Positions 1,651 to 49,015 of a stretch of DNA of 51,597 bases are shown in pieces. The notes under the pieces are model-generated. The model searched no databases, had not been told where the DNA came from, and worked only from the letters and a program-made list of their open reading frames with translations. Position 1 is the stretch's first letter. Every line of letters starts with the position of its first letter. Source of the stretch: Girardia tigrina (lineage: Eukaryota); NCBI GenBank assembly GCA_001938485.1, contig MQRK01241907.1:1-51597 (forward strand), in the 5' to 3' direction. The translations under genes and the position numbers were made by a program.

Positions 1651-3337
1651 TGTGAGGGATAATTTGGAATGTTGTAAGTTTGTTGTTTGTATGCTGTTTA
1701 GATTTGTGACTCTCCTACTCAGATGGGATTGATATGTTATTGATTGATTATTTGAATCTAATGATATTAATTTTAAGTACTAATTAATTAAAGTTTTATA
1801 ATTATGAATTTTAATAATATTTTTAGTAAACGATTTTAACTTTTTATGCCCGGGCGCCGGCATGATTTTCTCATAAAAAGCCGAATACCCACGAGATAAA
1901 TTTCCTATGTTGTATCATTCCATGATGCATGTTTCGACTGTCAACTCCCACAATAAAGATAAAATAGCTCTTTTCATTGCATAAGCTGTTTCACAATTCC
2001 AAAAATACTATTTTCCGTTTCAGAAGGTAGCTGTCGACGAAGTAGGAGTTCAGTTCAAGGGGCGCTCAAAATACATCCAATATAATCCTATGAAGCACAA
2101 TAAGTGGCACTTGAAGAGTTACGCCCTTGCTGATAGCATGAATGGGTATGTATGGAATTTGATACCATACTTTGGGAAAGATACAATTTATCCGTCGCAA
2201 GAATCAAAACTAGTTTCAGAAAATATTGTCAAATCACTTGTCCTAAATTTGGGGCAAGGTCACCACATATACGGAGATAGGTTTTATACTTCAGTCAACC
2301 TTGTATCTTCACTGTATGATGATGGAATGTATTATACAGGTACTATCAATACAAACCGCAAGAATTTGCCTGATAATCTGAAATCAGTCAAAATACAACA
2401 ATTGGAACAAAAAATTGGAGATCAAAAGATGGAAAGATATTAGCTATTTGATGGCGTGATAAACATAAAGTCAAATCTACTGCCATATTACTTTCTAGTT
2501 TTCATAATGCTGGTGTTGTGAAAGTTACGAGAAAATTTGAAAGAAACATTGATATACCTGTTTCAGTTGACGATTATAATCGAAACATGAGGGCGGTGGA
2601 TATAGTTGGTCAATATGCTAGCTATTACAGTTTGTGCGAAAGGCGTTCAAAGAAGTGGTGGAAGAAATTGTTTTGGCAATTATTTGAAATATATCAATTC
2701 AATTCGTACATAATTTATTCCATGGTAAATTATTCTAAAATTGGATTTCTGAAGTATAAGCGAAATCTGTTATCCGAATTAGCCAGAAAGTCTTTTGTTG
2801 ATTTAGAAGGAGTTATATCGTATGAAAGAAAAACGCCTGGCATACCAGTTACAGAACCATTGCCTTTCCGACTGAAAAAAGACTGCATGCATCTAGTGGA
2901 TTGCGATGACAAATCTAGGGAGTGTAATGTATGCAGTAGCCGTTCTCAAAGTTGCAGGAAAGAAACAAACTACTATTGCATAAGTTGCACAGATCATCCA
3001 CATCTGCATGCAAAAACATGTTTTGCAAAATATCTCCAACATTTGAACTATAAATCATAAACTACGGATTTCATTGTGTTATAATGACTGAACACGTAAG
3101 TACAATGTGTAATTATAATGACTAAATGTTGTAAAATGTTGTCCTAAAATAAACTGGTTACCTAAAATAACCCTTAAAATATATCGTTACAAAAAAATCT
3201 TTTTTTCAAAATTTTTGGTATTTCATTTTTATTTGAAAAATAATTCCGGACATAAAAGGTTAATTTATTAAATTTAATGTATTTTAAAAATTAATGTTCA
3301 TTTTCAAAAATTACGTAATGCCCTTTATCCAATAACA
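1651..3337 (+). repeat. Dispersed ~260-bp repeat (TGTGAGG...CCAATAACA), interrupted by the piggyBac; related copies at 6580-6865 (-) and 23618-23874 (-)
   Basis: Shared TGTGAGGRA start and TCTCCYACYCAGATGG core in all three copies; TTATCCAATAA end shared with the 23.6-kb copy. TG...CA ends suggest a solo LTR, but no TSD was seen. Confidence 0.5.
1840..3259 (+). mobile_element. piggyBac element, internally deleted, with a decayed PGBD4-like transposase
   Basis: TTAA at 1836-1839 and 3260-3263. TIRs CTTTTTATGCCCGG / CCGGACATAAAAGG. Motifs VAVDE..FKGR, GDRFYTS, DYNRNMRAVD, KKWWKKLF and a C-terminal Cys-rich domain (CxxC...CxxC...H..C). Frameshift near 2430. Confidence 0.92.
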
Positions 3338-4989: not shown

Positions 4990-5831
4990 CCGGTTTGGCT
5001 CAAAAGTTTATACTTGTTGGTGAAATCCTGGAAGAATTGCTGCGGTTTTGAGTTAGCCAATTATTGAATATCGTATAATACAGCAGATGAACTGGCGTAA
5101 TCCTTTCCTTGAAAGGCAGATTTCTTTGGTCGAAAAAGGTAATAATCCGAGGGGACCAAGTCTGGCGAGTAAGGTATATGTTCAAAAATGTTGAGACGAA
5201 GCTGAGTAATCTTCTCTTGTGTGATGGTAGCACTATGGGGCCTCGCATTGTCGTGCTGGAGGTTGCACAAATAGCGCTTTCCCATTTGAATCAATCGTCT
5301 TCTCACAGTCTCCTTTTCACTCCCAATGCACTCAGCAATTTTTCTTGTTGTAGCTCGCGGATCTTCTTTGAGAACAGTTAGTATCTCCTCTTCCAAATTG
5401 TATGACAACCGTCCACTGCGTGGCTCATCCTGACAGATAAAGTTTCCACTATTGAATTTTGCTACCCAGTTCTAAAGCCTACTGTACCTTCACCAAGAAT
5501 CCAGTTGATTTCATTATGATTATTGGCAGTTGACAGTCCTCTCTTACAGTTGTAATAAATGATTTTTCTAATATCTTTTCGAGAAAACTGCATTTTCAGT
5601 ACGAATACTCACTAGAAAAACGAAAAACATTCGTAATAGATTTAAACAATGTTTAATTTCATACAAATTAAGTATTTTATTATAAAAGTTCTGTTCCAAT
5701 TGTGAAAATTTTAACATATATTGTTAACAAAACTACTGAAGAGTACATGGTAAAAATTTCATTAACCGCAAATGCATTGAACTAATTTTAGAAAGCTTTA
5801 TTCATCTGCAGAAACTTTTGAGCCAAACCTG
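4990..5831 (-). mobile_element. mariner element, internally deleted
   Basis: TIRs CCGGTTTGGCTCAAAAGTTT / AAACTTTTGAGCCAAACCTG with a left TA. Minus-strand HTH (EDPRATTRKIAECIG) fused directly to QHDNARPH...PYSPDLVPSDYYLF. Confidence 0.88.
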
Positions 5832-10583: not shown

Positions 10584-11885
10584 TTACGTTGGTCGAAAAA
10601 TAATGGCGGTTTTTGAGTTTTATACTTTGATTATCTACTTTGATATGCATATAAGTTTAAATGCATTAGTGTTAAATATTATTTGAAATCTTATGCCTAG
10701 CTGTATATTCCTACAGCCATTATTAACACATTGCTGTTATTTTTTAGAATATTTACGGTGCTAAATTAATAATGTAAAAAAATTAAAATTCGAGTAATTT
10801 TCTTGTACGAATTTAAACTGGGTCGTAAAGCAGCAGAAACGGCTCGCAATATCAATAAAGCGTTTGGCAAGGGAACAACTTCTGACCGCACAGTGTAACG
10901 ATGGTTCCGAAAATTTTCTGATGGAGATGAGAACCTTGAAGATGAAGAAGGTCGTGGTCGTCCAGTTGCTGTGAATAACGACAATTTGAGGACAATGGTG
11001 GAAACAGATCCCCGTAGAACAATCAGAGAACTTGCAGATGGGTTGGGCATTAGTCATTCAACAGTCCTGGATCATTTAAAACAACTTGGAAAAATCAAGA
11101 AACTTGATAAATGGGTTCTACATGATTTGAATGAAAATCAAAAGAACCGACGCTATGAAATTTGTACTGCCAATCATCTTCGCAATAAAAACAATCCATT
11201 TCTTGATCGTATTGTTACCTGTGATGAGAAATGGATCCTGTATGATAATCGACGTCGATCTGCACAGTGGTTGGACAAAGATGAAGTAGAGAAATACTTT
11301 CCAAAACCGAAACTAACACCCCGTAAGATTATGTTGACAGTTTGGTGGTGTGATGCTGGAATCATTCACTATAGTTTATTTAATCCAGGAGAGAGGAGAG
11401 GTACAGTCATGAAATTGATGAAATGCATAAAAAATTGAAAACCCTTTGTCCGGGATTGGTCAATCGAAAAAGTCCCATCCTTCTTCATGATAACGCTAGA
11501 CCTCATATTTCAAAAGTGACTCTTCAAAAGCTTAATGAGTTGGGCTATGAAACCCTGCTTCATTCACCATATTCACTATATTCACTATATTCACCATATT
11601 CACCAGACCTCTCGCCAACGGACTTCTACTTTTTCAGGCATTTGTACAACTTCCTACGTGGAAAAATTTTCCAAAATTAAAATGATGCTCAAAATGCCTT
11701 CCAAGAATTCGTCGCTTCGAGAACCGATGCATTTTATGCTGATGGAATAAAACAACTTGTTTCTCGTTGGCAAAAATGTATTGATGCCAACGGTTCATAC
11801 TTTGATTAATAATCTTTTGTTTCTGTGAATTTGCACGTCTTTGAAGTTTGTGTCCCAAAACCGCCATTATTTTCGACCAACCTAA
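10584..11885 (+). mobile_element. Full-length cecropia-subfamily (Hsmar1-like) mariner, inactivated
   Basis: TA-flanked TIRs TTACGTTGGTCGAAAAATAATGGCGGTTTT / AAAACCGCCATTATTTTCGACCAACCTAA. Motifs WVLHDL, TCDEKWILYDNRRRSAQWLD, HDNARPH, YSPDLSPTD; stops and frameshifts present. Confidence 0.95.
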
Positions 11886-12439: not shown

Positions 12440-13954
12440 CGAGGGTAAGTCAACTATTATTCACAATGTGGTTATATATTTTTCTTAATATTAGTAGTAC
12501 TGTCGTGAGGCATAGATGATGCATGCGTGGTTTAATTGTTTTTATATCTGCACACGTTAGATCCTGCTAGGTTAGTTCCATTATCGCTGTCGTGTCGTTA
12601 ACCATGTCTGCTCCGCTCTCTATATGCACCAAAGAAAAACAACGTTCAGTAATCTTTTTTGGGATTAGAAGTTGTACAATGAGCCGGAATTCATCGAAGA
12701 CTTTTAGTACCATATTGGAAGAGTGTGTAGCTTCACTAATGGATTGACAAATTTATAACTAGTCGTATGAGTGTTACGCATCATGAAAGGGCCAGACCAC
12801 CATTTACAGCCACAAAAAGGAAAACATTGACCGTGTACATAACATGATTTTGTTAAACAGGCAATTAATTATTGATAATGTGGCAATTTGTCTGCAGATT
12901 AGTTATGGTTCTGCCTGGTAAATTATCCACAACAGACTTGGATGGAATCTGTGCAGGATGTGCCCAAAAACAACTTACACAGTTGCATAAAAAACAGTAT
13001 TTGGACATTTTTCAAAAACATTTGGTTCATTATAGTAACAAAACCTGGCATCTTCTTAAACTTGATCTTTCACGGGTGATGGCACATGGGTCCCTCATTA
13101 CAAGTCTGAGAGAAAACGACAGAGTAATGAAGGAAAATATCAGAATTTGCCCGTCAATTAAAAGTTCAAAAGTTAACCAATTTCAGGAAAATGGATGCTT
13201 TTATTTTTTTGTGACTCACTAGGTGTAATACTAGACATCATCAGAAATAAGACAACAATAAATAGTGCGCGTTTAAGTGAGATGTTTACTGACAAATTGA
13301 AGCCTGCAATTCATAGCAAACGCCGAAAACTGCTCTCAAACGTATTATGCTGTTGCACAACAAGATCCACATACCGCTGATCACAAGTTGAAACTCATCA
13401 GAAACTGAACTTTGAAGTACTGGTTCATTTTCCATATTTTCTCGACCTTTCTCCATCGGATGTTTAGTTGTTTGATCCACCCAAAGATGCATTAAGGGAT
13501 CGTAAATTTACCACAAATGAAGCAGTAAAAGAATCAGTATAATTCTAATATATAAATATATTTCTGGCTCGCCCTATTAAAAAATTCTTTTAATAGGTCA
13601 TCAAGGAGCTTGTACAACGATGGATCAAGTGCATTCTAAAGCAAGGGGACTTTTTTCTTCTATTTGACATTAGCCATTGGGCAGTGGGTGTACCAAATTA
13701 TGTACAAGCTTTCGCCACATCTCTCTATTTATAGCCTCTTTTCTCAGACATTCCATACTCAATCCACTCCATTCTTTTACATCGTCTGTCCATTGCCTCT
13801 TTGGTCCTTCTCCTTCCACTCTTCCTTCAATCATAACCTTTGCTAGTGCTTGTTTTCTTATCTGGGGACTAGGTTGAAAAGTAATGTATGTATACATTTT
13901 TTGTTTGTATGGCATTTAAATTTTAAACCACACTGTGGATAATAGCTGACTTCG
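12440..13954 (+). mobile_element. Decayed irritans-type mariner carrying a LINE insertion
   Basis: TA|CGAGGGTAAGTCAACTATTATTCACAATGTGGTT ... AACCACACTGTGGATAATAGCTGACTTCG|TA; fragmented transposase motifs (CAGCAQKQLT, LKPAIHSKRRKLLS, C-terminal QGD.VEK*). Confidence 0.85.
13652..13863 (-). mobile_element. 5'-truncated RTE-clade LINE 3' end
   Basis: LAKVMIEGRVEGEGPKRQWTDDVKEWSGLSMECLRKEAINREMWRKLV is typical of the RTE ORF C-terminus. A-rich tail on the minus strand; 7-bp TSD GGGGACT at 13645-13651 and 13864-13870. Confidence 0.85.
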
Positions 13955-14955: not shown

Positions 14956-15751
14956 CGGTTACATGACTAAAGCCCAATGGAAAAATGACATTCGGACAAA
15001 AGCCCAAAACAAAAAGCCTAATTGACAAAAGCCCATGCGGACAAAATCCCAAACGGACAAAATCCCTTGCAGACAAAAACGAAAGAGAAACAAGTACTAA
15101 TTTATAAAAGTTCAATATGACAATAATAATTAATTTTTTTTCGCGAAAGTAAATTACTTCTGACCAAATTCTATAATACTAAAAAATGATGACAAAGAAA
15201 ATATTTTGCAAAGTTTGATAAAGTTAAAAATTTTGAATTATGAAAGTATTTTTTATATTATATACAAACATTGTAAAATTAAAAAGATTCTGTTTCTATC
15301 GATATACTTATATTTAGATTGTATAAACACTTAAAATAATTATTGATTTAATAAAACTTTGCTCAAAATACCAATGAATTATTAAAAAGTAAATTTATAA
15401 AGTTTCATGAATTAAATACCAAATATTTTATAAGAAATTAATTAAATACAACTTTTTATACTTATCCTCAGTTGAAAGATCATTCTATCGCACATTAAGA
15501 GGAATCCACTCGCCAAACCCTTCAAATTCAGATTTCGAAATTCCAGAAAAATATAAAAACATTATTTTGTAGGATTACGGTAGATATGATCCAAACAGAA
15601 TCATTGCTATTGGAAATAAAGATCCAGTTTAACGACTTTTATCAAATGTCCTTTTCGGTGATGGTTCATTGGCAATACATTGTCAATTGGGCTTTTGGTT
15701 TTGGGCTTTTGTCCGAATGGCATTTGTCCATTGGGCTTTAGTCCGGCCACG
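14956..15751 (+). mobile_element. Non-autonomous Mutator-like (MULE) element
   Basis: 8-bp TSD ATTATAAA (14948-14955, 15752-15759). ~70-bp TIRs built from GACAAAAGCCC-like subrepeats. Internal relic PNPSNSDFEIPEKYK..DYGRYDPNRIIAIG...LFGDGS, resembling the MULE region up to the first catalytic D (DGTF). Confidence 0.8.
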
Positions 15752-16311: not shown

Positions 16312-16793
16312 CTAGCGCGCTCGGCCCGCTTCGCGGCCCTCTCTTGCCGGGCGTTCAATGTTATTAGATCACGCGACTTTTTTCTGAAAGCATTTTTATT
16401 GAAAATTTCAGTGTTTCGAGTATAAAAAATCGTATAACAAAAGTTTTTATTTCTGTTTAATGCAAAGTTTGAAAATCATATCTCGAGACAAAATGATATT
16501 TAAGAAATTACGGTTACAAAAATCGCATTCATTCTAATATCTTATCTTATAAAAGCCCAAGTCACTCACTGCCTCACTAACACTGTAAGGTAAATTTTTG
16601 AAATGATTTTATAATCAATAAAGAAATGATTGTATATTAATAAATAAATATTAGACTGATATTAGTCTAATATTTATTTATTAATATACAATCATTTCTT
16701 TATTGATTATAAAATCATTTCAAAAATTTACCTTACAGCGTTAGTGAGGCAGTGAGGCAGGCAGTGAGTGTCTTGGGCTTTTATAAGATAAGA
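16312..16793 (-). mobile_element. Non-autonomous Helitron with an inverted duplication of its 5' end
   Basis: Minus-strand 5' end A|TCTTATCTTATAAAAGCCCAAG followed by a CACT/GCCT microsatellite. 3' end has the GC hairpin GGCCGCGAAGCGGGCC then GAGCGCGCTAG|T. Insertion between A and T, no TSD. Confidence 0.8.
16540..16793. repeat. ~255-bp near-perfect spacerless palindrome
   Basis: Arms 16540-16660 and 16661-16793 are reverse complements apart from about 3 substitutions and a 12-nt microsatellite indel; centre TTAGACTGAT|ATTAGTCTAA. Confidence 0.95.
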
Positions 16794-16949
16794 TGATATA
16801 CACCATGAAAAAGTAAATGCACTGTACAATCATGAGACAAATCAAATGTTTTTGTTATTGCTAGTTTTTGTTAAATGCTAGTAGATTTTATATAGAATGA
16901 TGTGGTATCAATAAATTGATAATTTATTTCATTTTTAAAAAGGGTTTTA

Positions 16950-17500
16950 TACACATTAAGAATTCGATCTTGAAATCAACAAATAATATTTTAAATTTAA
17001 AAATTATTTCTCAATCATTTAAAGTTGAGAATATGTTTTGCAATAAATCACATACTCATTTAGGATTGTGTTCGGACATTGTTTATCAATACTCATGTAA
17101 TGCATGCAATGCCACATACATCGGAGAGACTGGCCGTTATCTCTGCAATCGAGTCCAAGAACACAGTCAAAAAGGGGGAAAGAGTAATATTGTTGAGCAT
17201 AAAAAAACGTGTAAATGTAATATGAACATAAATGATTTTAAGATTTTGTGCAAGCATTTTAAAAATTATTGGGAGAGAGTGTCATGTGAAGCATTGTTGA
17301 TAAGATCACGTAATCCACAAATCAATGTTCAAACAGCACTCTCAACTAATTTGTTAAGAGATTTCAATTAGACTTACGTAAGTGATTGTATAATCATTCA
17401 TTTCTTATATAAAGGCAATAAAAAAGAACATAATCAGTGATCTGATGATGACGGTTAAACCGTCGAAATATATTATCATACAATATATTTTTAAGTGCGT
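16950..17500 (+). mobile_element. Penelope-like element 3' module: intact GIY-YIG endonuclease frame plus hammerhead
   Basis: IVYQYSCNACNATYIGETGRYLCNRVQEH...IVEH...CEALLIRSRNPQINVQ (VY/YIG, R, E, N and CCHH motifs). Stop at 17371; hammerhead 66 nt downstream; no RT upstream. Confidence 0.85.
17437..17479 (+). ncRNA. Minimal type I hammerhead ribozyme
   Basis: GTGAT-CTGATGA-T-GACGG-TTAAA-CCGTC-GAAA-TATA-TT-ATCAT: stem I, conserved core, 5-bp stem II, short palindromic stem III, UH site. Confidence 0.85.
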
Positions 17501-21423: not shown

Positions 21424-22663
21424 TTAGGATGAATCAAAAGTCTTTTCGTATTTTCTACGTCTTTTTGTTCAATTGTTTCTTATTACCAAATAAAGATATT
21501 TTATATACATGTGTTATATGTTTTTAAAGCTCTTGAACTGCTCTATCACAATATATATTAAAACTTTTAATTAGTTGTTAATATAATTTTTATGGTCTTT
21601 TAGAAAAATCATGGAAAATTTTGAAATTCGTGTTCTTTTACGTCATTACTGGAAACATGGCTTAAACGCAACTGCAGCGTCAAAGAAGATATGCGAAGTT
21701 GAAGGCGATAATGTGGTCTCAAATCGTACTGCACAAAATTGGTTCAAAAGGTTCAACGAAGGCGACATTGACCTCGGAGACAATGCACGTTCAGGCCGAC
21801 TTATCACCGTAGATTCCGGAGCAATTCGTGAAGCCGTCGAGACAAATCCGTCAATAAGTACTCGCAGATTGTCGGCCGAACTCGATATTCCTCGATATTT
21901 GAGAAGTGCCTCATGAATTGACACAAATTCAAGCCGAAAAGCTTTTCGAAACTTGTCAAAAATTGCTTGAAAATCCGCGCGATGACCGTTTCATTCGTCG
22001 AATTGTAACTTTTGATGAAAAGTGGGTTTACTTCAGTAATCCAGACCAACAAAATCAATGGTTGGAACCCGGACAAATGGCGATACCGGTAGCGAAACGA
22101 GATCGTTTTTCAAGGAAAGCACTTTTGTGTGTTTGGTGGAATTTCGAAGGCGTGATTCACTTCGAGCTGGTTCCAAATGGTCGTACCATCGACGCTGACC
22201 TTTACTGCGCCCAACTTGATCGAATGTATGCGGNNNNNNNNNNNNNNNNNCCCGCTTTGATCAATCGAAAGCGAGTTCTTCTACAACAGGACAATGCAAA
22301 ACCGCACACCGCCAAACAAACAAAGGAAAAAATCAAAAATCTCGACGTCTTTGAACTTCTTCCACACCCAGCGTATAGTCCGGATCTTGCGCCATCCGAC
22401 TATCATCTTTTCCGCTCTATGGCACACTTTCTTCGTGGTCACAGCTTCAATAATCTGACCGAGGTCGAAAACGGGTATCACCAGTTCTTCGCTTCTAAGA
22501 ACAAGGATTGGTACCGCAGCGGGATCGCACAACTTGCCCATAGATGGGTTCAAGCTATAGATTCAAATGGCCTTTACTTTGAAACCTAAATGTTTTTTAT
22601 TTGTTGTAAAATTATGTTTAAATTTTTAATAAAAAATACGAAAAGACTTTTGGTTCACCCAAA
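21424..22663 (+). mobile_element. Near-intact mariner (one frameshifting deletion near 21900) with D,D35D spacing
   Basis: TA-flanked TIRs TTAGGATGAATCAAAAGTCTTTTCGTATTTT / AAAATACGAAAAGACTTTTGGTTCACCCAAA. ATG 21611, VPHELT, TFDEKW, QDNAKPH, YSPDLAPSDYHLF, stop 22589. Confidence 0.95.
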
Positions 22664-23874: not shown

Positions 23875-25097
23875 ATTATGAAAAAATAAATTAATGAAAT
23901 TTTGATTGATAGAAATGTAATTTAAAAAAAAACAGATGATTTTTAATATTAAAGTTAGTTGGAAATTCTGTAAATTAATAATTCGACAAATAGTTAAATT
24001 TTAACAGCTTTTTATAATATAAAACAGCCATTAAATTTTTTTTAATTAATATAAATTGTAGATTGATATTGTAGATAGATATAAATTGTAATTATTTTTT
24101 TGTATTTAAATTATATAAATGTTAAATGGTTTTTAAATTAAATATTGAAATAAAACATTAAAATAATTTTAGAATGATAAATATCTTTTGTTAATTTATT
24201 TAAAATATGTAAAAAAATGAAATGAAATAAATCGTTAAAATAATTTCAGAGTAACAAAATGGTTTTTAAACTGAATATTGATATGAAATAACTCGTTAAA
24301 ATCTTTTGCTAATTAAAACGTTTTACAAATAAAATAAAAACATTTAACTAATTTTAAAGTAATAAAAAATCTTTTGTTAATTTACTTAAAATATGTTTTT
24401 ACAATGGAATTAAATAAATTATGTAGATTTTATATTTTATTTTAAATTAAATTTTATAAAATATTGATATGTTAATCTATAAAATTTACATAATGAAAAT
24501 AATGAATTCAATTTTTAAAATAACGTGTTAATAAATAACTTATCAGTATTTATAATCCGGTGTTTTTATTTATAATTAATCTGGTCAAAAGAAAACGAAA
24601 GAATAGTTCCTCAACAAAAAATTGTTTGAATAACGGTTATTTGTTATAGAAATAAAGTCTTGCGAAGTAATGAATCCTGATTTTAATCTCAAACCCAATA
24701 ATATAAATTTTTACTTGTTTCGGAAATAGTTTTTTTCATCTTGCAAAATATTTTTCAAGGGGGACTTGTCGTTCAGTAAAAAAGCAAATATTATTTAAAA
24801 AAATATAAAGATTTTTAAGCAAATGAAATAAATTCGTTTTTCAAAAAAATGGAGCTTTAATTAATTAATTTTTTGTAATAATTTAAAGATTTTGAATTTA
24901 ATTATGACCAAGTTTCGTTCATGAAGAAATAACTGAATACTTGGATTTTAATTAGTTTTCAATGTCTATTTAAAAATATAACTTTTTTATGTATCATAGA
25001 TGTATATAAAAATTGTCTAATAAATTATTTTTTTGTGTATAATTTCTTCTAAATTGGTACTATTCTCTGGTTGACTGTACTTTTGCTATTTCTTCAG

Positions 25098-25454
25098 TAT
25101 GGAAGGGAGTATTGTACGGTTACCTCAGATCATAGAATTAAAAAAGAAGTACAAGTTTTTTATCTACCTTGACGAAGCTCATAGTATCGGTGCTCTGGGT
25201 TCAAGAGGCAAAGGCGTATTAGATTATTTTAACATTAATTCGGAAGAAATTGATGTAGCCATGGGAACATTTACAAAAAGTTTTGGTTCTGCCGGTGGAT
25301 ATATTGCTGGCAGTAAAAGGTTAATTGATTATATTCGTGAAAAGTCTCACAGTACAATCTACGGAGCGACCATGTCTGCACCAATTTGCCAACAAATCAT
25401 TACCTCCATGAGAATTGTTGAAGGTTTGGAAGCTGGAAATCAGGGAATAAACAA
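25098..25454 (+). CDS. SPTLC2: Serine palmitoyltransferase 2 coding exon 4 (PLP-binding lysine)
   Basis: Acceptor TTTCTTCAG|T; MEGSIVRLP...[11 protein letters not shown]...[17 protein letters not shown]...GNQGIN(K); donor AA|GTATTC, phase 2. Confidence 0.95.
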
Positions 25455-25748
25455 GTATTCATTGTTTATTTATACTATTTCATTGACTTAGTAGCAAACA
25501 TAATCTATTTTAATGAAGATATCGTTCTTATCAAAATTATTTCATTCAAATCTGTTGGAAAATAATTTGGTTTACTTATATTAAAATTTGAATGCTTTAA
25601 ACTCGTGAAATATTGTAAAATAACAAAAATTAATTACAAATTAATTTAATTAAGAATTGATTAAATCAAAGTTTCACAAACAAAAAAAAATTGTATTTTT
25701 CCAAAATTGTTTGATGTACTAATTAAGATTTTTATTTGTGTATGATTA

Positions 25749-26954
25749 CGTCGTTCGATCAATAACCTTTAAGACTTGGTATGAAATAAATAATTCACAC
25801 TGTTCTAACAACTTTTATTTTGAAAAACATTTATTACTAGTATGAAAAATATTTTCTACATCATTTCTCAATGCAGCCTCCTTGGTTATCAACAAGTTTC
25901 ATCTGTGCAACAGATCATCAAAGGCAACAGTAAACAACTTTTGATTCTGTGGTAATAAGAAATTTGATACAAATTCCTTGAGATCATATCTACATGAAAA
26001 GTGACGCCATCTAGGATGTTTTTTAGACGTTTGAATAAATATAAGTCATTTGGAGCGATGTCAAGAATGCACTGCGGGTGTTCCAGGTTCCAAAAACCAC
26101 ATTTCAGGATTGTTTCTTGTTGTGTGGAGTGAATAGGCGTCTTGTAAGTCAAAAATCAAAGTCTAGTATTTTGTGCCCTACGTTTCTTTCTTATTCACTC
26201 AGTAAAAAGAACACTGAAGTATTCTGCATTGATGGTACTATATTTTTGGCAGAAATTCAAATTGGTAACACCCTTTCGTGACCAGAAGTTTTTACTTCCA
26301 ATCTTGAGTGTAGGATTCTCATCTTTGCAATGCCACTCAACAAACTTTTTCTGGTCTCAGGAAGATACATTCAAAATGAAGTCCTGAGTAATAATATTGT
26401 CAAGGAAAGTTGAATTCCATTACTCAGAAATTACCAGGTTGGCGTGCATCTTTCATCACTTCAGGGAAAAACTTCGGCACAAATCTACTGCAAAAAATTT
26501 TGTATCCAAGTTCTGTTACCATAGTATGCAAAGAACCGTAACTAATCTTCAGTTGAACTGCTAGTTCGCGTACTAGTATTTTACGATCACAGTTGAAGAT
26601 TGTTTCACATTGAAATTTTTCTCATCTTAGATTTTTTTTGGTCTACCTACTCTACCGGTATCGTTATCCCTTGCCTTGGTTGAACTCCTTCAGTCAATAA
26701 TAAAACCACCATAACTTTTTCCCATGTCTCTAATAGTTTCGTTTGCACTTTTTCCAAGTTTATAGTAAAATTTAATGATGCTGCAGTACTTCATATTGTT
26801 CAAAATACCGCCAACCAAAATGAACAAAAGTGATCAATTAAAATGAATGTTTTGATTTACTATGAATAAATGTTGTTCAAAATAACAGTTGTTAGAAAAT
26901 TGTTAATCTTTTTATATCATACCGAGTCTTAGAGGTTATTGATCAAACTAGGCA
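25749..26954 (-). mobile_element. Decayed full-length mariner
   Basis: ~40-bp TIRs (GATCAATAACCTYTAAGACTYGGTATGAWATAAA at both ends). Minus-strand MKYCSIIKFYYKLGKSANETI... and EHPQCILDIAPNDLYLF. Confidence 0.85.
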
Positions 26955-28111: not shown

Positions 28112-29339
28112 TTAGGTTGGGGAAAAAGTAATCTATTATTTTAATCCATTATTTTAATTCATTGTTTATCGATCAAACAATTTCCAATTTATGCTCTTTT
28201 TTAAGGTAACATTTCACAGTAATTTCACAAAAATTTTTTGCTTTTTTTTATTCATTTCTGAGTCACAGGATTTTAAAAATGGAAGTCAACAAAGAAAATA
28301 TTCGGTGCATTTTACAGTTTTTATTCAATAAAGGCGAAAATGCAAGCCAGGCGACTGTTATTGTGAATGGTGTTTATGGTGCCAATACTGTAACAGCTAA
28401 TTACACGCTATTTTGGTTTCGTCGATTCCGTGGAGGCATTTTTGATGTTAAAGATGCACCTCGCACAGGCAGGCCTATCGTTGAAATTATCGATAAAATC
28501 TCGGCAATGATCGAAGTTGACCGGTATGTTAGTAGTTGTAGCATCGCACATGAGCTGAAGATCAACCACAAAAACGGTTTTAAACCATTTGGGAAAAGCA
28601 GGATTGAAAAAGAAACTTGATGTTTGGGTTCCACACCAATTAACACCAAAATACATGATGGATCGAATTTCCATCTGCGAAGCCTTGGCCAAACGAAATG
28701 AAATCGACCCATTTCTTAAACGGATGGTTACTGGGATGAGAAATGGGTCGAGCACCTCCAACGGTCGCGAAACCAGGACTAACGGCCAGGAAGGTTCTAC
28801 TGTGTATTTGGTGGGACTGGAAAGGAATCATTTATTATGAGTTGCTTCCGTATGGCTAAACACTAAATTCAGATCTGTAATGTCAACAACTGGACCGTTT
28901 GAAGATAGCAATTGATGAGAAACGATCAGAATTGGCCAACAGAAGAGGTATTGTGTTCCATCACGACAACGCCAGACCACATACGTCTGTAGGGATCACA
29001 TTCGCCAGGAACTCAGGGAGCTTGGTTGGGAAGTTTTAATGCATCCACCATATAGTTCGGACCTGGCACCAAGCGATTACCACCTTTTTCTCGCATTGCA
29101 AAATTTCCTGAGTGATAAGAAATTTGGATCAATAGAAGATGTGAAAATCGATTACTACAGTTATTCGCCAATAAGGACTAAGACTTCTACGAGAGAGGCA
29201 TTATGAAGCTACCTTCAAAATGGCAACTAATTATACAACAAAACGGTGCATATTTGACTCCAAGAGAACAATCAGAAGCATGTTAAATAAAGTTTTGAAT
29301 TTCACGCCAAAATAATGGATTTCCTTTTCCTCAACCTAA
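28112..29339 (+). mobile_element. Full-length mellifera-type mariner, inactivated
   Basis: TA-flanked TIRs TTAGGTTGGGGAAAAAGTAATCTATTATTTT / AAAATAATGGATTTCCTTTTCCTCAACCTAA. MEVNKENIRCILQF...DAPRTGRP, WVPHQLT, HDNARPH, YSSDLAPSDYHLF; several frameshifts. Confidence 0.95.
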
Positions 29340-33430: not shown

Positions 33431-33807
33431 AGCCGATGATGATAGAAAATTAATAATACTACAAATATAATTTACTTATTTTAAAAATCTTTTTTAATAA
33501 AAATATCTGAATGTATTTATGGGGGGTTAGTTTAAATTTAAGTTTCGCCAAAATATTTTATTATTTTTTTGATTTGAAAATTTAAAAGAAATAAATGAAA
33601 AAATTAAAATGTAGGGTAAAAATATGACAAATAAATACTTATTTAAAATATGTTTACAGTAATAACAATTGATATATTTTGATAAAAGTTATGGAATAAG
33701 TTTAAATAATTTTAAATAAATAATTAACGGATTAATATTTAAGAAATATTTTTTTTTAACAAAAGGGTCTATTGTAAATTTAAATTAAATAATTTTTTAT
33801 GATAAAG

Positions 33808-33985
33808 TTTCGTAGAAAAATGTAAAATAATTTAAGGTTTAGATTTTGTAAAATTTTCGTAAAAAATATAAATATAATCTGAAGTTTAATTTGAAAAATG
33901 TAAAATAATTTCAAATTTGAATTTTTTAAAATTTTCGTAAAAAAATGTAAATATAATTTGAAGTTTAAATTTCGTAAATTTTCAA
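33808..33985. repeat. AT-rich minisatellite (~40-bp units, TTTTCGTAAAAAATGTAAA...)
   Basis: Four to five degenerate units sharing TTCGTA-AAAAATGTAAAATAATTT. Confidence 0.6.
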
Positions 33986-34654
33986 AATTTAATCGAAAAA
34001 ATTTATGAATTAATTTTGGGTGAAATAATTAAGTTATTGATAATAAAGATTATATGAAAATAAAAAACAAAATCAAAAACCTTGCAATGGTCAAATATCA
34101 AATATCTTCAAAATACAAAAAATGGCTCATTTTAGTTGAGAATATTCTGAATCTGTTGGACGATGAAGGAATAAAGAGTTTGAATAAATTAGCAATTGAA
34201 ACACGTAACAAATTGAATTAATAAGAAATTTGTTTAAGTATGTGAATTGTTGATATTAATAAATTTTGTGGTGTTAAATTATGACTTCAGAATGTGATAA
34301 TAATGAAAGTGGCATAAACGCTACTTACAGTATTGATTCGTGTAGAAATCCAGGGATAAATATCTGAATAAAATGCACGCATGTTTGGGATTATTACAGA
34401 AATCGTTTCTTTATAATCCAATAAAAATTAAAAAAATATGTAAAAGTTATAAAGCATTAACATGTGTTATTTTAATAAACACGGATATAATATAAATGTA
34501 CTTATTTTTCTTAATTTTTAGGCTACTGCAGTAATAAAACTAGTAAATCACAAAAATTCTTTTTTTTAAGACAATACTCTAAGAAAAATAAAAGTCACTC
34601 AAAAATCGATAAATAAAAAAATCAAATCTTCTTAGAACAATTAAATATTCTTAA

Positions 34655-35010
34655 TGGAACCAGTAACCAATCAGAAGCGTTTCTTATTAGGCTTGGGTGA
34701 TCGCGACCGTTGCTGCCTAGGCTAAGGACATGGGAACCGTTTTATTTTTGCACATTTTGCCCTATTGATTTGCACATTTGAAACTTGATTTTGATTGGCT
34801 TAGCACATTTGCATTGCTCGAGAACCGTGAACCAATCAGAAGCATTGTTAGGGTGATCGGAACCAACCAGAAGCGTTGCTAAGGTGATCGGAACTGTTGT
34901 TAGGGTGATCGGAGCCGTTGCTATAGTAACCGGAACAGTTGCCATGGTAACATCGATCGTTGTCATGGCAACGGGTGACCCACCGGGGTGGAGAATACCC
35001 ATTTTCTTAT
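34655..35010. repeat. X-box/CCAAT array element, copy A
   Basis: GTTG units at 34875, 34896, 34917, 34938 and 34959 (exact 21-bp period); the last three are GTTGCTATAGTAAC, GTTGCCATGGTAAC, GTTGTCATGGCAAC. CCAATCAGAAGC at 34667 and 34832; CCACCGGGGTGG; GGAGAATACCCATTTTC. Confidence 0.85.
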
Positions 35011-35649
35011 AGTGAGTTGAAATTTTACCAAAATTGTAAAATAACATCACCTATATATTTCTATACATACATATAAGAAGTAAATTAATATAAGAATTGT
35101 ATTAACTTAAAGGAAAGTAGTCACGACACATTTGAAAGTTCAAGCAGATAAGCAGTAATGTGTTAAAACCAGAATAAATATCTTGAATGGTGAAAAGTTT
35201 TGGTATGTGACAGACAATTTAGGTGAATGCATTTAGTAGAATTAGCTTTATTTAAACTGGAATGAAAACAAATTTGTTTTGCTTCTTCAATTATCATTTT
35301 CTAATTCACAAATGAATTAAAATAATTCTAATTTTATAGTTAGGTTTTTGTTACCTGATTCGCTTAAAAATTAAAGATTTATGTATTTTTATTTTTTGTG
35401 TTGATTGTTTTATTATTCTTTTATATTAAATTTTATTTACTAATGAATGATTCCATTTTATAATGAGTTTTATAATTTTGTTATTTTAAAAATATTCCTT
35501 ATACATAAAAAGAATAGAACAGGGAAGAAGCGAAAATAGTTTAAATTAATTTTAATCTTACTATTGGAATCACAAATAAGTGATTGTGGATATTAAATAA
35601 GAAGGAAGATTCAAATATTTTTCTGACAAATATAATATATCAATTATAT

Positions 35650-36850: not shown

Positions 36851-37097
36851 TCAAAGTCTCAACAAGCTGCCACACAAATAATAAATTGTGTCTGTTCCGG
36901 ATTTACAATAATAAAGAGAAATATTATTTAAAATTTAACTTTTTTCCATATATATATATATATAAACTACATTTAAATTCGAATTCTAAAATCCAAATTT
37001 CAATTTCAATTTTTATTTATTTTTGTTAATTTAATTTTTTATCACTTTATTGCGTGTGGTTATTATCTGCTTAATTCCCAAAACATCATCATCAACA

Positions 37098-37330
37098 ATG
37101 GTCAATTTTACAATTGAACAAATCAATTCATTGATGGACAAAAAGTCATTCAATGTCCACGTCGATCACGGCAATTCCTCCGGTTCTTTGATCAGTAAAG
37201 CTGGAATTATTGCCGGTGCTCGATTCATAGACATCCAAAAAGGCGAAAAAGAACGTTGTATCATCATCATGTCGACTTCAATATCGATGCACAACGAAAT
37301 GACCAAAGACAATTTTAAACAGAGAGACGG
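37098..37330 (+). pseudogene. EEF2: Elongation factor 2 (eEF2) 5' pseudogene fragment, probably a retrocopy
   Basis: MVNFTIEQINSLMDKKS..HVDHGNS..SLISKAGIIAG.ARFID..K.EKERCIII.STSISM aligns to eEF2 MVNFTVDQIR..MDKK...HVDHGKSTLTDSL..KAGIIA...RFTDTRKDEQERCITIKST. The P-loop Lys is lost, three deletions are present, and the copy is 3'-truncated. Confidence 0.88.
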
Positions 37331-37708
37331 TCTGAGAAGAATCAATTTTAAGAGAACGTAAAACGGTCCTCTTTAGGGTCATAAATTTTGATTGGCCATG
37401 GGCAATAACAGTGTCTATAATATTGGCGCATACTTTGATGAATGACAAAAATATTTGTATTGACAAATTATCAATAAATTTTAACTTGAGTTCTTCAAAT
37501 TTCATACTTGACGACTTAACAATAATGACATGTTTTATTGAAATGATAATTATTTAATGATTGGATAATCATGACATCATTCATATTTCAATCATAATTA
37601 ATTTATTTTCATAAATACCTTCTACTGATCAATATAACTCCGATCAATAAAAGAAAAAAATGCATAATTTGGGTAAATTTATACGCAAGTATACCTAAAG
37701 ATCATTAA

Positions 37709-41841: not shown

Positions 41842-42499
41842 TTAATAATAATCAAACTTATAATTTTAATTATTTAACCTTCTTTTTCAATGACTCGGCA
41901 GCTTATCCTTAACCATAAAAATATTGTGTTTGTTAATTCTGATGATTAAAGTAAACCTTTGAAAAAGAAGATTAACAATTCGAAGAAAGGAAATGTATAT
42001 TTACACATTTCACGTTATACATCAAACTTTGATCATTATAAAAGTTAATGTACTTTTAAATTTCCAGAAATTCAATTTAAAATATATTTTCATGCATAAG
42101 TATATAATAAATATTATGACAATATTTACCGTACCTAAAAAGAGTTTTGTTTTGTCTTGAGTCTACGCAGCTGTTGTAAAAGTAATAGGAGGTATATAAT
42201 TCCAACATTGATTCCTGTCTGTTGAATATTTTATTTCAATCTAAAATTTATGTGGTTAGAACTTTCTTTTTATTAGAATTATTACTTATTTTTATTATTA
42301 CGAATTATATCTTTCTGAAAAACAATAAAAAACGTTTCAGATATTATTAAATTTTAAGAAATTAAAAAAATATTTTATAAATAATCATGTTAAATGTATA
42401 TTTAATAAAAATAATATTATTTTTAGCAATAATTATATTGATAATAATATTCGAAATAATAATAATTTATTTTATAATAAAAAAGGTTTATTTTTTAAG

Positions 42500-42755
42500 A
42501 ATCAGACAACTAGCTTGGAACACTCAGTATTTTCGTGCAAACCTTCACAAAAAGGGTTATGTGGTATTTGGAAACAAAGATAGTCCAGTAGTGCCCATTA
42601 TTATTTATACTCCCACAAAACTAGCAGCCTTCTCACGCGAATGCCTTAACAGAGATGTTGGAACAGTTGTTGTCGGTTTTCCGGCCACCAGCATTATCCT
42701 AGCTCGGGCTAGGTTTTGCATAAGTGCTTCTCACACCAAGGAAATGATTGATTAT
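42500..42755 (+). CDS. SPTLC2: Serine palmitoyltransferase 2 coding exon 5
   Basis: Acceptor TTTTTTAAG|A; (K)IRQLAWNTQYFR...GNKDSPVVP...VVVGFPATSIILARARFCISASHTKEMIDY; donor TAT|GTAACA, phase 0. Confidence 0.95.
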
Positions 42756-43689
42756 GTAACAATTATTTATTTTTTTAAATATTAAATTAATTCTTGCTTT
42801 ATCTATAATCTTGCTTTATATATAATACAAATAATTTTAATTATTTCTTAATTTATTTTTCGGATTTATACTAGATATTTTCAAATTAACAAAAATAAAA
42901 TTAAAAAATTAATTATTCTTAAAAATAATTTGATACATATGAAAATTTGATTAAATTTCATAAATCACCATGTCACTCTCATCCAAGAACCAATAGCGAT
43001 TTTATTAAACTCAATTTTCACTCTCACTCGTCACAGTAAATTATTCAGTCATTGGAATTACAGAGAAATTCATTTTCGTTAAAGCATTTGATTTTTTGGC
43101 AATATTTACCAGCCAAAATGGCTTTTATCGATCATTTCCATCAAAGTTTTCAAATTCAGTTTGATTATATCTGTGACTATACATTTAAGTTTGAAAATAT
43201 TATCTTTGAAATTGACCAAATATCGTGCTACACTTATTGCTCAAATGAGAGTATTTCTAACAATAGCCAAAATATTTATTACAAATTTTTTATTTAAAAA
43301 ACAATCCATTATAACACTTTTTTTAAAGTTTAAAAAACATTTTTAAAACCACTAATTTTTCGTACATTACAAATTCACCATTTTTCAACATTTAATTTAA
43401 AACTTTTTACACCTCATTTTAAAAATTCATTACGCATAATTTTACATAAATTTGAATAAAATTTTAAATATTTCCACATGTAATAATTTTTACTTAATTT
43501 ATTTTCCTTTAAAATAATGTTATTCATTTTACTGCACCAGAATAATAATTCATAAATGTTTCAAAATATTGGTATTTTTTGCCCCAGTGCGTAGTTGAAA
43601 CGGAAACCTAGTCCACGTTCTCCAGAAATGAAATCAGACAGAACCAGTAAATCAAAAAAATTTATGTCCATTCTTTATGCTGGCAGAAT

Positions 43690-43996
43690 TCTATTTTACC
43701 AAGAGAATTTTTTTGTTATTTTTTGTAAAAGCGAAAATTACTATTACATTTATTAATACGTTTTCATCTTTACTTTTTTACATAATATAAACTACTTATA
43801 TTTTATAAGTAGATCATTTTCAGTTAATATTAGTCAGAAACTCCGATGGAACCGTTTTTCCACAATTCTGAGACCTTAACAACTTTTTTGATCAAATTTT
43901 TACATAATCATTTATTGTCATCGAAAATGAGTAAGTGTGCAAAGTTGGAAAAAAATGATTGAAGCCTTCAAAATAGGTTTCTAAATTCCATGGATC
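43690..43996 (-). repeat. ~300-bp microsatellite-associated repeat; inverted copy at 47040-47340
   Basis: Reverse complement of ATCCATGGAATTTCGAAACCTATTTTTGAAGGCTT...GATGACAATAAATGATTATGTAAAAATTTGATCAA...; both copies abut (TA)n/(TG)n, as in Helitron/Helentron-derived repeats. Confidence 0.8.
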
Positions 43997-45353: not shown

Positions 45354-45790
45354 AAGTAAAAAGTTATTGTTTATATAGTTAGATGACCATTATGACACAA
45401 ATTGTTACGTCAAAATACTCTAATATGATTTCACTTCGTACTAGAATTGTAGAACATACCCGATCAAGTAGAAAGAGATCAATTTTGGATCGCATAGTGA
45501 AATGTCATGGAACTCATAGGACGGTATATCATCATGATTCTCCGGTTTTGATTAGTAACTTTGATCACAATTATGAAATGACAATTACTGAAACACTGTT
45601 AATAAAGTTTTGTAAAACTAGTTTAAATGGGCAAAATGATTTGTAGAATCATATTAGAGTATTTTGACGTAACACATTGTGGCGTAATGGTCATCTTACT
45701 ATATAAACAATAACTTTTCACTTAAATACAGAACTTAAGATGCCACAAAACTGGCGAAACATGTTTTCAAATAAAAATTTAAAATTGAAA
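45354..45790 (+). mobile_element. Penelope-like fragment with inverted 5' pLTR copy
   Basis: 77-bp inverted arms (45354-45430 / 45647-45723) enclose the GIY-YIG C-terminus LRTRIVEH...SILDRIVKCH...TITETLLIKFCKTSLNGQ*; a hammerhead-like motif follows at 45731. Confidence 0.75.
45731..45768 (+). ncRNA. Degenerate minimal hammerhead (core CUUAAGA, G5U)
   Basis: GAA-CTTAAGA-T-GCCA-CAAAAC-TGGC-GAAA-CATG-TT-TTC. Confidence 0.65.
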
Positions 45791-46447: not shown

Positions 46448-46870
46448 TTAAAAATAAATTAAGATTAGATCCGTTTGCACATTAATCTTAGGATCTAAAG
46501 ATTTGATATAAAGTGCTTCACAGGCTACCTTCTCCCAATAGTTTTTAAAACGAGTATACAGAATTTTAAAATCATTTATGCTTATGTTTTCGTTCGACTT
46601 ACAACCCTTTCTGTGTTCTGCAATATTACTCTCACCTACATTCCGACCATGTTCTTGGATTCTCCTACAGAGATGACGGGACGTCTCTCCAATGTATTTG
46701 GCATTACACCCATAACATGTAAATTTATATACGAGATCCGAACATAATCCAAATGGGTTTGGAGATTTATTACAAAATACATTTTGTATTTTATATGTTT
46801 GTAATATTATTTTTAAGTTTTTTGTTTTGTGTCTCAATTTTGTTTCGAGAGATTTTATTTGTGTGATAAT
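46448..46870 (-). mobile_element. Penelope-like GIY-YIG endonuclease module (second copy, related family)
   Basis: LVYKFTCYGCNAKYIGETSRHLCRRIQEH...IAEH...CEALYIKSLDPKINVQ; clearly homologous to 16950-17371; no RT. Confidence 0.85.
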
Positions 46871-47039
46871 TAGAGACAATATTACACCAATGAAAACACA
46901 AGTCACTACTTACAGTATACAGTGCATATCTAACAATAGTTAGTCATTTCACAATTTATCTTTCTTCGTTTCTTCTCTGTCTGCAGCGATCTCCTTAGGA
47001 TCTTCCGATGAATGACTACTTATATAGGTGTGTGTGTGT

Positions 47040-47340
47040 ATCCATGGAATTTCGAAACCTATTTTTGAAGGCTTTTAACTCAATCAATTTTCTTCAAACT
47101 TTGCACACTCACTCATTTTTGATGACAATAAATGATTATGTAAAAATTTGATCAAGAAAAAACTTTTTTAAGTCCCAAAATGGAAAAAAAGGAAAATTCG
47201 GAGTTCCGAAACAATATTAATTGAAAAAGATTTACTGATAAATTATAAGTAGTTTATATTACGCAAAAAAGTAAAGATAAAAAATATTAATAAATTTTTC
47301 CTTCTACAATAGAACAAAAGAAATTCTCTTCGCCAAATAG
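47040..47340 (+). repeat. Inverted partner of 43690-43996
   Basis: See 43690-43996; preceded by (TG)n. Confidence 0.8.
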
Positions 47341-47810
47341 AGATTAAAGCGTTGTGAAATCCCCAGTGTGAAATTTAAAAGCTTGTCCGTTATTGTCATG
47401 CGGTTACGGGTCAGAGTTTAAAACAGGAAATGGAGCTATTTATACAGAACTGTTAAATAATAGAGCTTTATTTTTATTGAAAACCTGAAACTTGCTTTAT
47501 GTTTTGAGATATTAGAAAAAGGCTTCGTCGAAAATATGTTTATAAAAAATTAATGTATCCTATTGATTCCATAAAATATTTTCAAGTACAAAATTAAAGT
47601 TTTGATGAATAAATCAAGGTGTAGGGTTTGTTAAAATATATTACATTCCATCACATTTCATATGAAATCAACCGTAAAAAATCCTCTTTTTTTATTATTA
47701 ATTTATTCCTGTTAATTTTTTCAATCATTTTATTCATCATTTAAATATTAAGCCAGAAGTAACAAAAATATTTTTTTATTTTAAAATACTTTTCATTGAT
47801 TTTTTTGCAG

Positions 47811-47924
47811 ACACTCAAAGTGATTGATGAAGTCTCAGACATGATCAATCTAAACTATAGTCGTCTTCCAGTACCGGAGTGGTGTAGCCAGCTTCCTGAA
47901 ACACCGAATTTGATTCCAGACTGA
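47811..47924 (+). CDS. SPTLC2: Serine palmitoyltransferase 2 terminal coding exon 6
   Basis: Acceptor TTTTTTGCAG|; TLKVIDEVSDMINLNYSRLPVPEWCSQLPETPNLIPD* matches the LCB2 tail ALKEIDEVGDLLQLKYSR; TGA at 47922-47924. Not in the ORF track (too short). Confidence 0.92.
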   Translation, partial: TLKVIDEVSDMINLNYSRLPVPEWCSQLPETPNLIPD

Positions 47925-48100
47925 ACCTTTTAACCACACGACTGCGGCCACGCTGATACCATTCCAATATAAATATTTATATCAAACATGTAGTTATCCC
48001 TTTCTTATTTAGTGGTGAGATATGTTAGTTTTTATATTCATATATATGGGTCGTAAAAAAGTGCACAAAATATTTAGAAAATTTAAAAAGTAATTTTGAA

Positions 48101-48106
48101 AATAAA
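48101..48106 (+). promoter_or_regulatory. Candidate polyadenylation signal for the SPT gene
   Basis: First AATAAA after the stop codon (177 nt downstream); weak evidence in AT-rich DNA. Confidence 0.3.
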
Positions 48107-48599
48107 TTCAAAGCAATCCTTATTCTTCAATTTAAATCTTATCATAAATCGACACAAATTTTATAACTCATTTTATGAATGTATAAAAATGCAAAAATGA
48201 TGATTGTGTAATCAATTATATGAAATGACGCAAATAAAAAATTCTGAATAAGTTGCTTGAAACTGCCGATTGATCATTGATTTAAGGACAACGTGACCTA
48301 ATTAACAGTGCTTCACATGACACTCTGAAAAAAACTATTAAAATGCTTATAAATCATCTTGAAATTGTCTATATGGGTTTTTATTCAAGTGCATCAGTAC
48401 ATTTTTGATATTCTGCTTCTTTGTACCTCTAAATATCGATGTGCATTTTGTGTAAATTTTCCCATTATGTTAATTATAGGAAAAAGTAATCAATATATGA
48501 AAATTCTAATTTCACATTCAGATAGAGAATCGAAATGTGCATCAAACACATGATATCGATTTTTTACACTAGTACTTTTAAAAAATTATATGTATTTAT

Positions 48600-49015
48600 T
48601 TTTGCACTTTTGCACATGTGCAACTTAAAAAGCACTAAGCTAGATCATTAATAATGTGCGGCACAATGTGCACTATCGATTAGGACTTTAAAGTATCGAT
48701 TAGCACATTTGTGCACTGTGCAGTGATCGATTAGCACTTTTTCTACTGTTGCTATGGAAAGGGTAACGGTTGCTATGGATACAGTAACCGTTACCATAGT
48801 TACAACCGCCTTGAATCAGTGTATCCGTTGCTAATGGTAACTAAGACCTTGGTTACCGTTGTTGCCTAGGCTAGGGTGATCGGAACCGTTGCTAGGGTGA
48901 TATGAACCGTTGTTATGGTAACCGGAACCGTTGCCATGGAAACCCCGACCGTTTCCATGGTAACGGGTTACCCCCCGGGGGGTCTTTTTGGGAGAATGCC
49001 CATTTTCCCTCTACT
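48600..49015. repeat. X-box array element, copy B
   Basis: X-box-like units at 48748/48769/48790 and 48888/48909/48930/48951 (21-bp period), TGCAC and ATCGATTAG repeats upstream, ACCCCCCGGGGGGT palindrome, GGAGAATGCCCATTTTCCCTCTACT end. Confidence 0.85.

Follow-up and report, generated by a model that had tools for sequence, protein, structure and literature searches.

In a complete Polinton, protein-primed replication by pPolB originates at the outermost hexamer, and the integrase processes the end. Published Polinton terminal inverted repeats (TIRs) range from 46 to 1447 bp, end in (AGT)2//(ACT)2 or (AG)3//(CT)3 and are accompanied by duplications of the target site (TSDs) of 6 bp (PMC8097293). 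Under 10 copies are reported in Anolis (PMC3014272), and Polintons of planarians are released from silencing when cells differentiate toward epidermis and neurons (PMC8532177). RFX1 and RFX3 bind the AAV ITR and the EF-C sites in the HBV and polyomavirus enhancers (PMC5760533). We found no description of a phased X-box array in Polinton ends in the literature searched; Repbase and the original Polinton papers lay outside that scope and may hold the TIR unannotated. The excerpts of PMC8502044, PMC3014272, PMC6431247 and PMC11410931 describe no such arrangement. Literature covered in part also gave no combination of Helitron, X-box and RFX, and paired Polintons with RFX only for protist giant viruses.

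Here we analyse a stretch of 51,597 nucleotides from Girardia tigrina (contig MQRK01241907.1), referred to as the window. The reading that we favour, with moderate confidence, is that positions 48370–49015 (copy B) are a decayed, one-ended (solo) copy of an abundant repeat, likely a Polinton/Maverick (adintovirus-type) TIR, in which palindromes phased at 21 bp would likely be bound by dimers of RFX, the host's cilia regulator.

A phased X-box array in copy B

The sequence-only reading had described an X-box array in 21-bp-phased runs at this place, and the array is there: seven phased units fall into two runs, with two looser units between them (Table 1). Six of the units lie within one mismatch of GTTNCYATRGNAAC, all inside 230 bp. 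This pattern combines the known X-box with the units of the window itself. Dinucleotide shuffles of 48740–48970 (n = 2000) gave a mean of 0.004 matches and a maximum of 1 versus the 6 observed, and the X-box palindrome match in copy B is above chance. Across the whole window, 16 matches were found at up to two mismatches versus 6.4 expected, a count reached in none of 100 shuffles. Use of RFX through such palindromes would be plausible.

Table 1. Positions in the window of copy B, its parts and the neighbouring features.
Feature	Position	Strand	Basis and remarks
Copy A, also one-ended, oriented like B	34676..35013	+	79% over 138 bp to B
Last coding exon of SPT	47811..47924	+	Translation; homologues; 47811–48014 matched by contig 17 (RNA-like) of run X3
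GIY-YIG (Penelope-type) endonuclease remnant, outside the repeat	48237..48365	-	Abuts the cut left edge of copy B
Inner module, highest-copy part, rich in ATCGAT and TAGCAC words	48370..48745	+	Truncated at its left
X-box run 1, three palindromic units spaced by 21 bp	48748..48803		Units start at 48748, 48769, 48790
Two looser, out-of-phase X-box-like units	48827..48874		15-bp unit at 48827; CCTAGG unit at 48861
X-box run 2, four units spaced by 21 bp, outer three near-perfect	48888..48964		Units start at 48888, 48909, 48930, 48951
C6G6 palindrome	48970..48983		Sequence; self-match
Short subterminal hairpin	48990..49009	+	Predicted -3.3 kcal/mol, z -1.3, not significant
Putative element terminus	49010..49015	-	TCTACT on +, AGTAGA on -; 5/6 to the Polinton (ACT)2 end

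At the outer end, the 17-bp core of the subterminal hairpin is 94% identical in copy A, and the wider end folds no better than shuffles (z -0.03), as does the end of copy A. The minus strand at 49015 begins AGTAGAGGG (AGTAGAG), as had been claimed, and a match this good to the (ACT)2 end is found at 0.5% of window positions. We infer that 49010–49015 is the true terminus of the element. Two joints with a short side stopping at 49014 were rejected as evidence for it, the side lengths of 21 and 29 being the commonest in the table of joints.

Extent and abundance of the repeat

The repeat had been thought to start at 48600; it starts at about 48370 and runs to 49015. Its left edge is a cut one, since a GIY-YIG remnant abuts it and relatives of the repeat continue further left. 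This remnant is 73% alike over 30 aa by tblastn, and 74.6% alike in DNA, to the GIY-YIG ORF at 16901, which matches Pfam PF01541. The window holds three such Penelope-type remnants (16901–17371, 46448–46909 and 48237–48365), with protein likenesses of 63–73%. Within the inner module ATCGAT occurs five times versus 0.07 expected.

Four sequencing runs were compared with 47700–49700 at 80% likeness, and 60,122 and 72,490 contigs matched in two DNA runs. In these two, summed contig depth was 61–137 on the unique flank, 2.6 x 10^6 to 1.8 x 10^7 over 48370–48905, 1.3 x 10^6 to 3.1 x 10^6 over 48906–48972, 1.9 x 10^5 to 3.2 x 10^5 in the bin 48973–49039, which holds the end, and 1 x 10^3 to 4 x 10^3 in the next bin. 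The ratio to the unique flank is about 1 x 10^5 to 3 x 10^5 for the inner module and 1 x 10^3 to 5 x 10^3 for the end bin; summed depth is not copy number, being inflated by overlapping short contigs, and is to be read as an order of 10^4–10^5 only. As a rough ratio, depth drops 50–80-fold from the inner module toward the end. A third run, under another species label, gave the same profile at lower depth, and in run X17, from another organism and read to 1%, 36 partial reads matched, almost none of them on the repeat. In each of the two DNA samples a locus-specific contig crosses from the interior of the end to the flank on its right; insertion B is therefore present in both. Directly after copy B lies a separate middle-repetitive element (49017–49440; depth 1 x 10^3 to 1.4 x 10^4), at the start of which, 49017, a contig of run X3 joins.

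Comparison with a second copy

Copy A lies in an intron of the gene for serine palmitoyltransferase 2 (SPT), between the exons at 25093–25455 and 42498–42767, and has five 21-bp units, three of them within one mismatch of the pattern. It is a direct repeat of copy B, 14 kb away, and the two stop at the matching place. The end of copy A at 35013 reads ACTATAAG (ACTATAA), not AGTAG, and agrees with the end motif at three of six positions. About 700 bp to the left of copy A there is an AT-rich tandem repeat with periods of 47 and 78 bp (33800–33987), weakly like the relatives L001 and L002 described below.

Around the looser units, 48855–48890 and 34706–34741 of copy A are 86% alike. Over an ungapped 111 bp, the outer GTT/AAC positions differ between the copies at 0 of 18 sites versus 18 of 93 for all others (Fisher p = 0.04), in one after-the-fact test; whole X-boxes compared with the rest show no difference (6/42 versus 12/69, p = 0.79). 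The claim that the GTT...AAC symmetry is kept despite base changes thus holds, as a modest signal. The GC palindrome, which was said to be kept with a different sequence, is present in both copies, but the MAFFT alignment places a 9-bp gap in copy A there. Its apparent retention with a changed sequence may be a by-product of a deletion, and with this indel it is not safe to speak of compensatory change.

Neither end has an inverted counterpart in the window. The right flanks begin with G, reading GTCGGA after B and GAGTTG after A, and these hexamers recur elsewhere, 2 and 4 times respectively across the window, though at no point ahead of the start of an element, so that no TSD is seen. Its absence is expected, as A and B are cut solo ends. 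Since they are direct and one-ended, and the window has neither a TSD nor a Polinton gene, the two are not a TIR pair, and the inverted pair 10–25 kb apart enclosing Polinton genes with 6-bp TSDs, for which a search had been proposed, does not occur here.

Relatives of the repeat and the link to pPolB

A metagenome scan for the repeat gave two loci, L001 and L002. The former is a string of four or more units, arranged head to tail and cut to varying extents, 82–86% identical to copy B 48370–48860, two of which start at the same word. The latter has one and a half module units, 85–87% identical to B, with 290–652 matching the inner module at 86.8% over 364 bp. It also contains a 336-aa open frame that is the C-terminal part of a pPolB and points toward the repeat, which starts about 600 bp past the pPolB stop. 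Pfam gives no direct match to this piece; it is 55% identical to the protein P0129, which carries Pfam PF03175 at E 8e-28. Of 8000 candidates scored, 7324 reach E<=1e-40, mostly from animal records where these are named. On the strand opposite to pPolB, a 110-aa acidic, Cys-containing ORF (938–1270) starts 50 bp from the inner edge of the repeat and points inward; it has no Pfam match above the cut-off (rve_2 is sub-threshold, E 0.004) and no usable match in the ESM Atlas.

The outer 290 bp of L002 are unlike copy B save for short matches. A single X-box sits at the outer end, facing outward; it resembles several of the units of B, and its last 13 letters with GGG equal the last unit of B plus GGG (13/13). 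The contig stops six bases past this shared word, and no terminus is seen in it. As read from the sequence, this layout of pPolB end, module and outward X-box is that of a Polinton end. The junction may be a recurrent one, as a metagenome in which the animal is a minor part would mostly assemble multi-copy junctions.

An alignment query gave 26 related pPolB loci in viral_contigs, whereas the single L002 protein gave none. In 12 of the 26 no more than 3.3 kb of contig follows pPolB, which suggests that pPolB often lies near an element end; L012 and L014 end in tandem repeats. The L012 contig closes, after pPolB and an ORF labelled by eye as integrase-like, with a 58-bp tandem repeat that includes a C/G palindrome (12983–13221), a further case of a repeat-rich end in this clade, and that record shows no second TIR. 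None of the 26 loci has an X-box cluster, many of these contigs being without their ends, and the two records, out of 15, that were searched whole gave no X-box match. The tandem X-box pattern had no match in viral_contigs, where many contigs lack their ends, and the family patterns none in viral_contigs or genome_contigs; phage records gave none by DNA or by pPolB. The window matched none of 120 full-length pPolBs. The sole match among 496 ORFs of the viral loci, that of an L020 ORF to 33530–33715 of the window, was rejected as weak, out of frame and AT-rich, with a stop.

A tandem X-box scan of genome_contigs returned four loci, L030–L033. Three look bacterial, and the X-box word pair thus also arises without RFX. 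Their X-box-like pairs, 20–24 bp apart, lie in apparently bacterial intergenic DNA (L030 3001–3034, L032 2260–2297 and L033 3001–3035) and could be operators of a bacterial regulator. The fourth, L031 (2254 bp), is probably animal DNA within a bacterial bin. It is unrelated in sequence to the copy B repeat and carries no Polinton gene on its 2254 bp. The element end at 1843–2254 has CACGTG words, four CCGCCATCTTGG repeats, which we take to be YY1-like, and a pair of X-boxes spaced by 21 bp; a long, strong hairpin (z -6.3) and a perfect ACTACT end come next, before unrelated sequence.

The SPT gene and its transposons

GC per kb across the window is 17–37%, as in AT-rich animal DNA. One SPT gene is spread over about 47 kb. 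For one of its exons the best single-domain homologues come from parasitic flatworms (67–68%), with other animals at 62–69%. A scan of the window found no Rfam match and no tRNA. The introns are crowded with mariner, piggyBac-like and GIY-YIG remnants. Mariner transposase remnants lie at 5061–5471, 10899–11438, 21587–22589 and 28210–28620, and a piggyBac-like transposase remnant (Pfam DDE_Tnp_1_7) occupies two frames at 1985–3060, within the first SPT intron seen. Inverted-repeat pairs, 79–94% alike, mark more DNA transposons or MITEs (43690–43995 with 47040–47341; 45354–45723; 25753–26948; 14965–15743). A MITE-like element at 50657–51594 has inverted ends starting CAGTTGTCCC and (TA)n runs on both sides, and 16539–16794 is a near-perfect palindrome without spacer, with 96-bp arms (98%), inside a 43-bp inverted pair. 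A frame at 37035–37361 without a Pfam match, which presumably resembles the start of elongation factor 2, is probably a decayed retrocopy within an SPT intron.

The SPT stop codon is at 47922–47924. Copy B had been placed about 0.7–1.1 kb 3' of it, and this agrees with the X-box runs, which lie 0.82–1.04 kb past the stop. A role for copy B as an SPT enhancer is unsupported, and its position calls for no special explanation, because a repeat so abundant sits near most genes. Taken alone, the single copy beside SPT is an ordinary decayed repeat.

Alternative origins of the repeat

Galileo and Foldback elements are known for long ends whose internal tandem repeats grow and shrink, and for many solo ends; solo TIRs account for 64 of 170 Galileo copies (PMC3573991). 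The repeat could be an arm of another long-armed, non-coding cut-and-paste transposon of this kind, or a free module inserted by or in the Polinton end of L002, its X-box-like words being transposase or RFX sites. Galileo typically shows solo ends and arms made of internal repeats (PMC3573991), and the very high copy number would fit as well, as would a module that B and L002 have in common although they differ further out. However, L002 with its pPolB end, its inward-pointing ORF and its outward-facing X-box is then explained only by chance, and the ACT-type ends of B and L031 are left unexplained. Galileo is a P-superfamily cut-and-paste element (PMC3573991), whereas the sole gene linked to the repeat here is pPolB, and we consider such an origin unlikely. 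A dispersed satellite or minisatellite without a transposase partner, spread by recombination or reinsertion of circles, with palindromes that reflect an ancestral 21-bp unit, would account for the 50–80-fold excess of the inner module over the end, for its tandem units and for the many joints that skip or repeat parts of the array. It sits badly with the end place shared by A and B, the sharp drop in depth there, the ordered, non-repeating anatomy and the outer half-sites conserved between the copies, and is highly improbable.

Were the repeat a non-autonomous Helentron (HINE, DINE-1-like) or Helitron moved by rolling-circle copying, 48960–48971 would be its 3' subTIR, with a stem-loop after it, and its tandem units would be rolling-circle concatemers or central repeats. 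HINE and DINE-1 elements resemble the repeat in their high copy number, their central tandem repeats and the palindromic word and stem-loop near the end (PMC4067079, PMC7492417), and one-ended, very high-copy copies bearing tandem repeats are normal for them (PMC7492417). The head-to-tail cut units of L001, two from the same starting word, could be seen in this light. The word at 48960–48971 is palindromic, lies 44 bp from the end (38–60 bp in HINEs) and has a 9-bp core in common with the reversed subTIR of the D. yakuba element Helentron-Dy-60.1 (PMC4067079), but this likeness is largely that of an X-box half-site. HINEs also have flanks of at least TT, unlike the hexamers after B and A, and neither the window nor L001 or L002 holds an inverted subTIR partner at two mismatches, although none of them need hold the 5' end. 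For a Helitron, copy B ends CTAC then T, one base off the CTRR-T end, yet neither palindrome lies about 11 bp from the end. The canonical Helitron end (5' TC, 3' CTRR, hairpin about 11 bp in, A-T target) is not seen in the two copies, which end CTAC and ATAG before T, with hairpins that end 5 and 31 bp before. No Rep or helicase was seen near any of the four copies seen, and a rolling-circle origin appears improbable to us.

A probable Polinton end as a possible platform for RFX

The Polinton/Maverick assignment draws on the length of the repeat, which is like that of a TIR and stands beside a pPolB end in L002, on the end hexamer and on the position of pPolB near the end in related loci. The sequence-only reading had guessed at a Polinton, and in part this stands: L002 joins the repeat to a pPolB end, and copy B agrees with (ACT)2 at five of six positions. 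The part that fails concerns the window, where there is no inverted partner, no TSD and no Polinton gene. pPolB lies beside the same repeat in one of the two relatives and is absent from the window; integrase, ATPase, protease and capsid genes were likewise not found in the window with the 496 ORFs of related loci, and L002 is short. No complete two-ended element was seen in the window, L001, L002 or the other loci examined. Against the link, the pPolB junction comes from one contig, and a repeat so abundant can land beside anything. In contrast to known Polintons, the window and its relatives present solo ends only, with no TSD, integrase or capsid gene, and an inner module at satellite-like copy number; the copy number is far above the Polinton figures in the papers cited here (e.g. 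PMC3014272).

On the Polinton reading, copy B would be one TIR end, made up of hexamer, hairpins, X-box array and inner module. The X-box run just inside the end may be a platform for a host factor, with two helical turns per site. Epidermis and neurons are RFX-rich ciliated lineages. RFX dimers on the array would likely promote inward transcription or use of the origin where RFX is plentiful, for instance in ciliated epidermis, in neurons or in the germ line. The inner module duplicates head-to-tail, as the tandem units of L001 and L002 show, and so outnumbers the termini roughly 50–80-fold. As solo ends, copies A and B may be what was left after non-autonomous or full elements had inserted and were then broken by deletions and later insertions, and the enzymes of Polintons would be the agent that spread the repeat. 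An X-box-like word is likewise found at viral ends or enhancers, or close to them, in the D sequence of the AAV ITR and in the EF-C/EP sites of HBV and polyomavirus (PMC5760533). There, a single site is bound by RFX1/RFX3 dimers in EMSA (PMC5760533), whereas copy B has seven phased candidate sites and two looser ones in an integrated element.

We would suggest, tentatively and with some doubt, that a Polinton lineage made its ends into phased RFX platforms, which couple its activity to ciliated or germ cells, that derivatives of such an end at tens of thousands of places seed clustered X-boxes across the genome and have a satellite-like inner part, and that capture of RFX may be a general Polinton strategy, since the succession of X-box, hairpin and ACTACT is seen again in L031, which is unrelated. 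Polinton ends have been described by their length and their 6-bp motif, and a phased RFX array would bear on the host factors that they use and on the choice of cell type, for which AAV offers a mammalian precedent. If the repeat is derived from a Polinton, it would represent an unusually large amplification for this class of element and may have supplied an animal genome with clustered RFX sites by the thousand.
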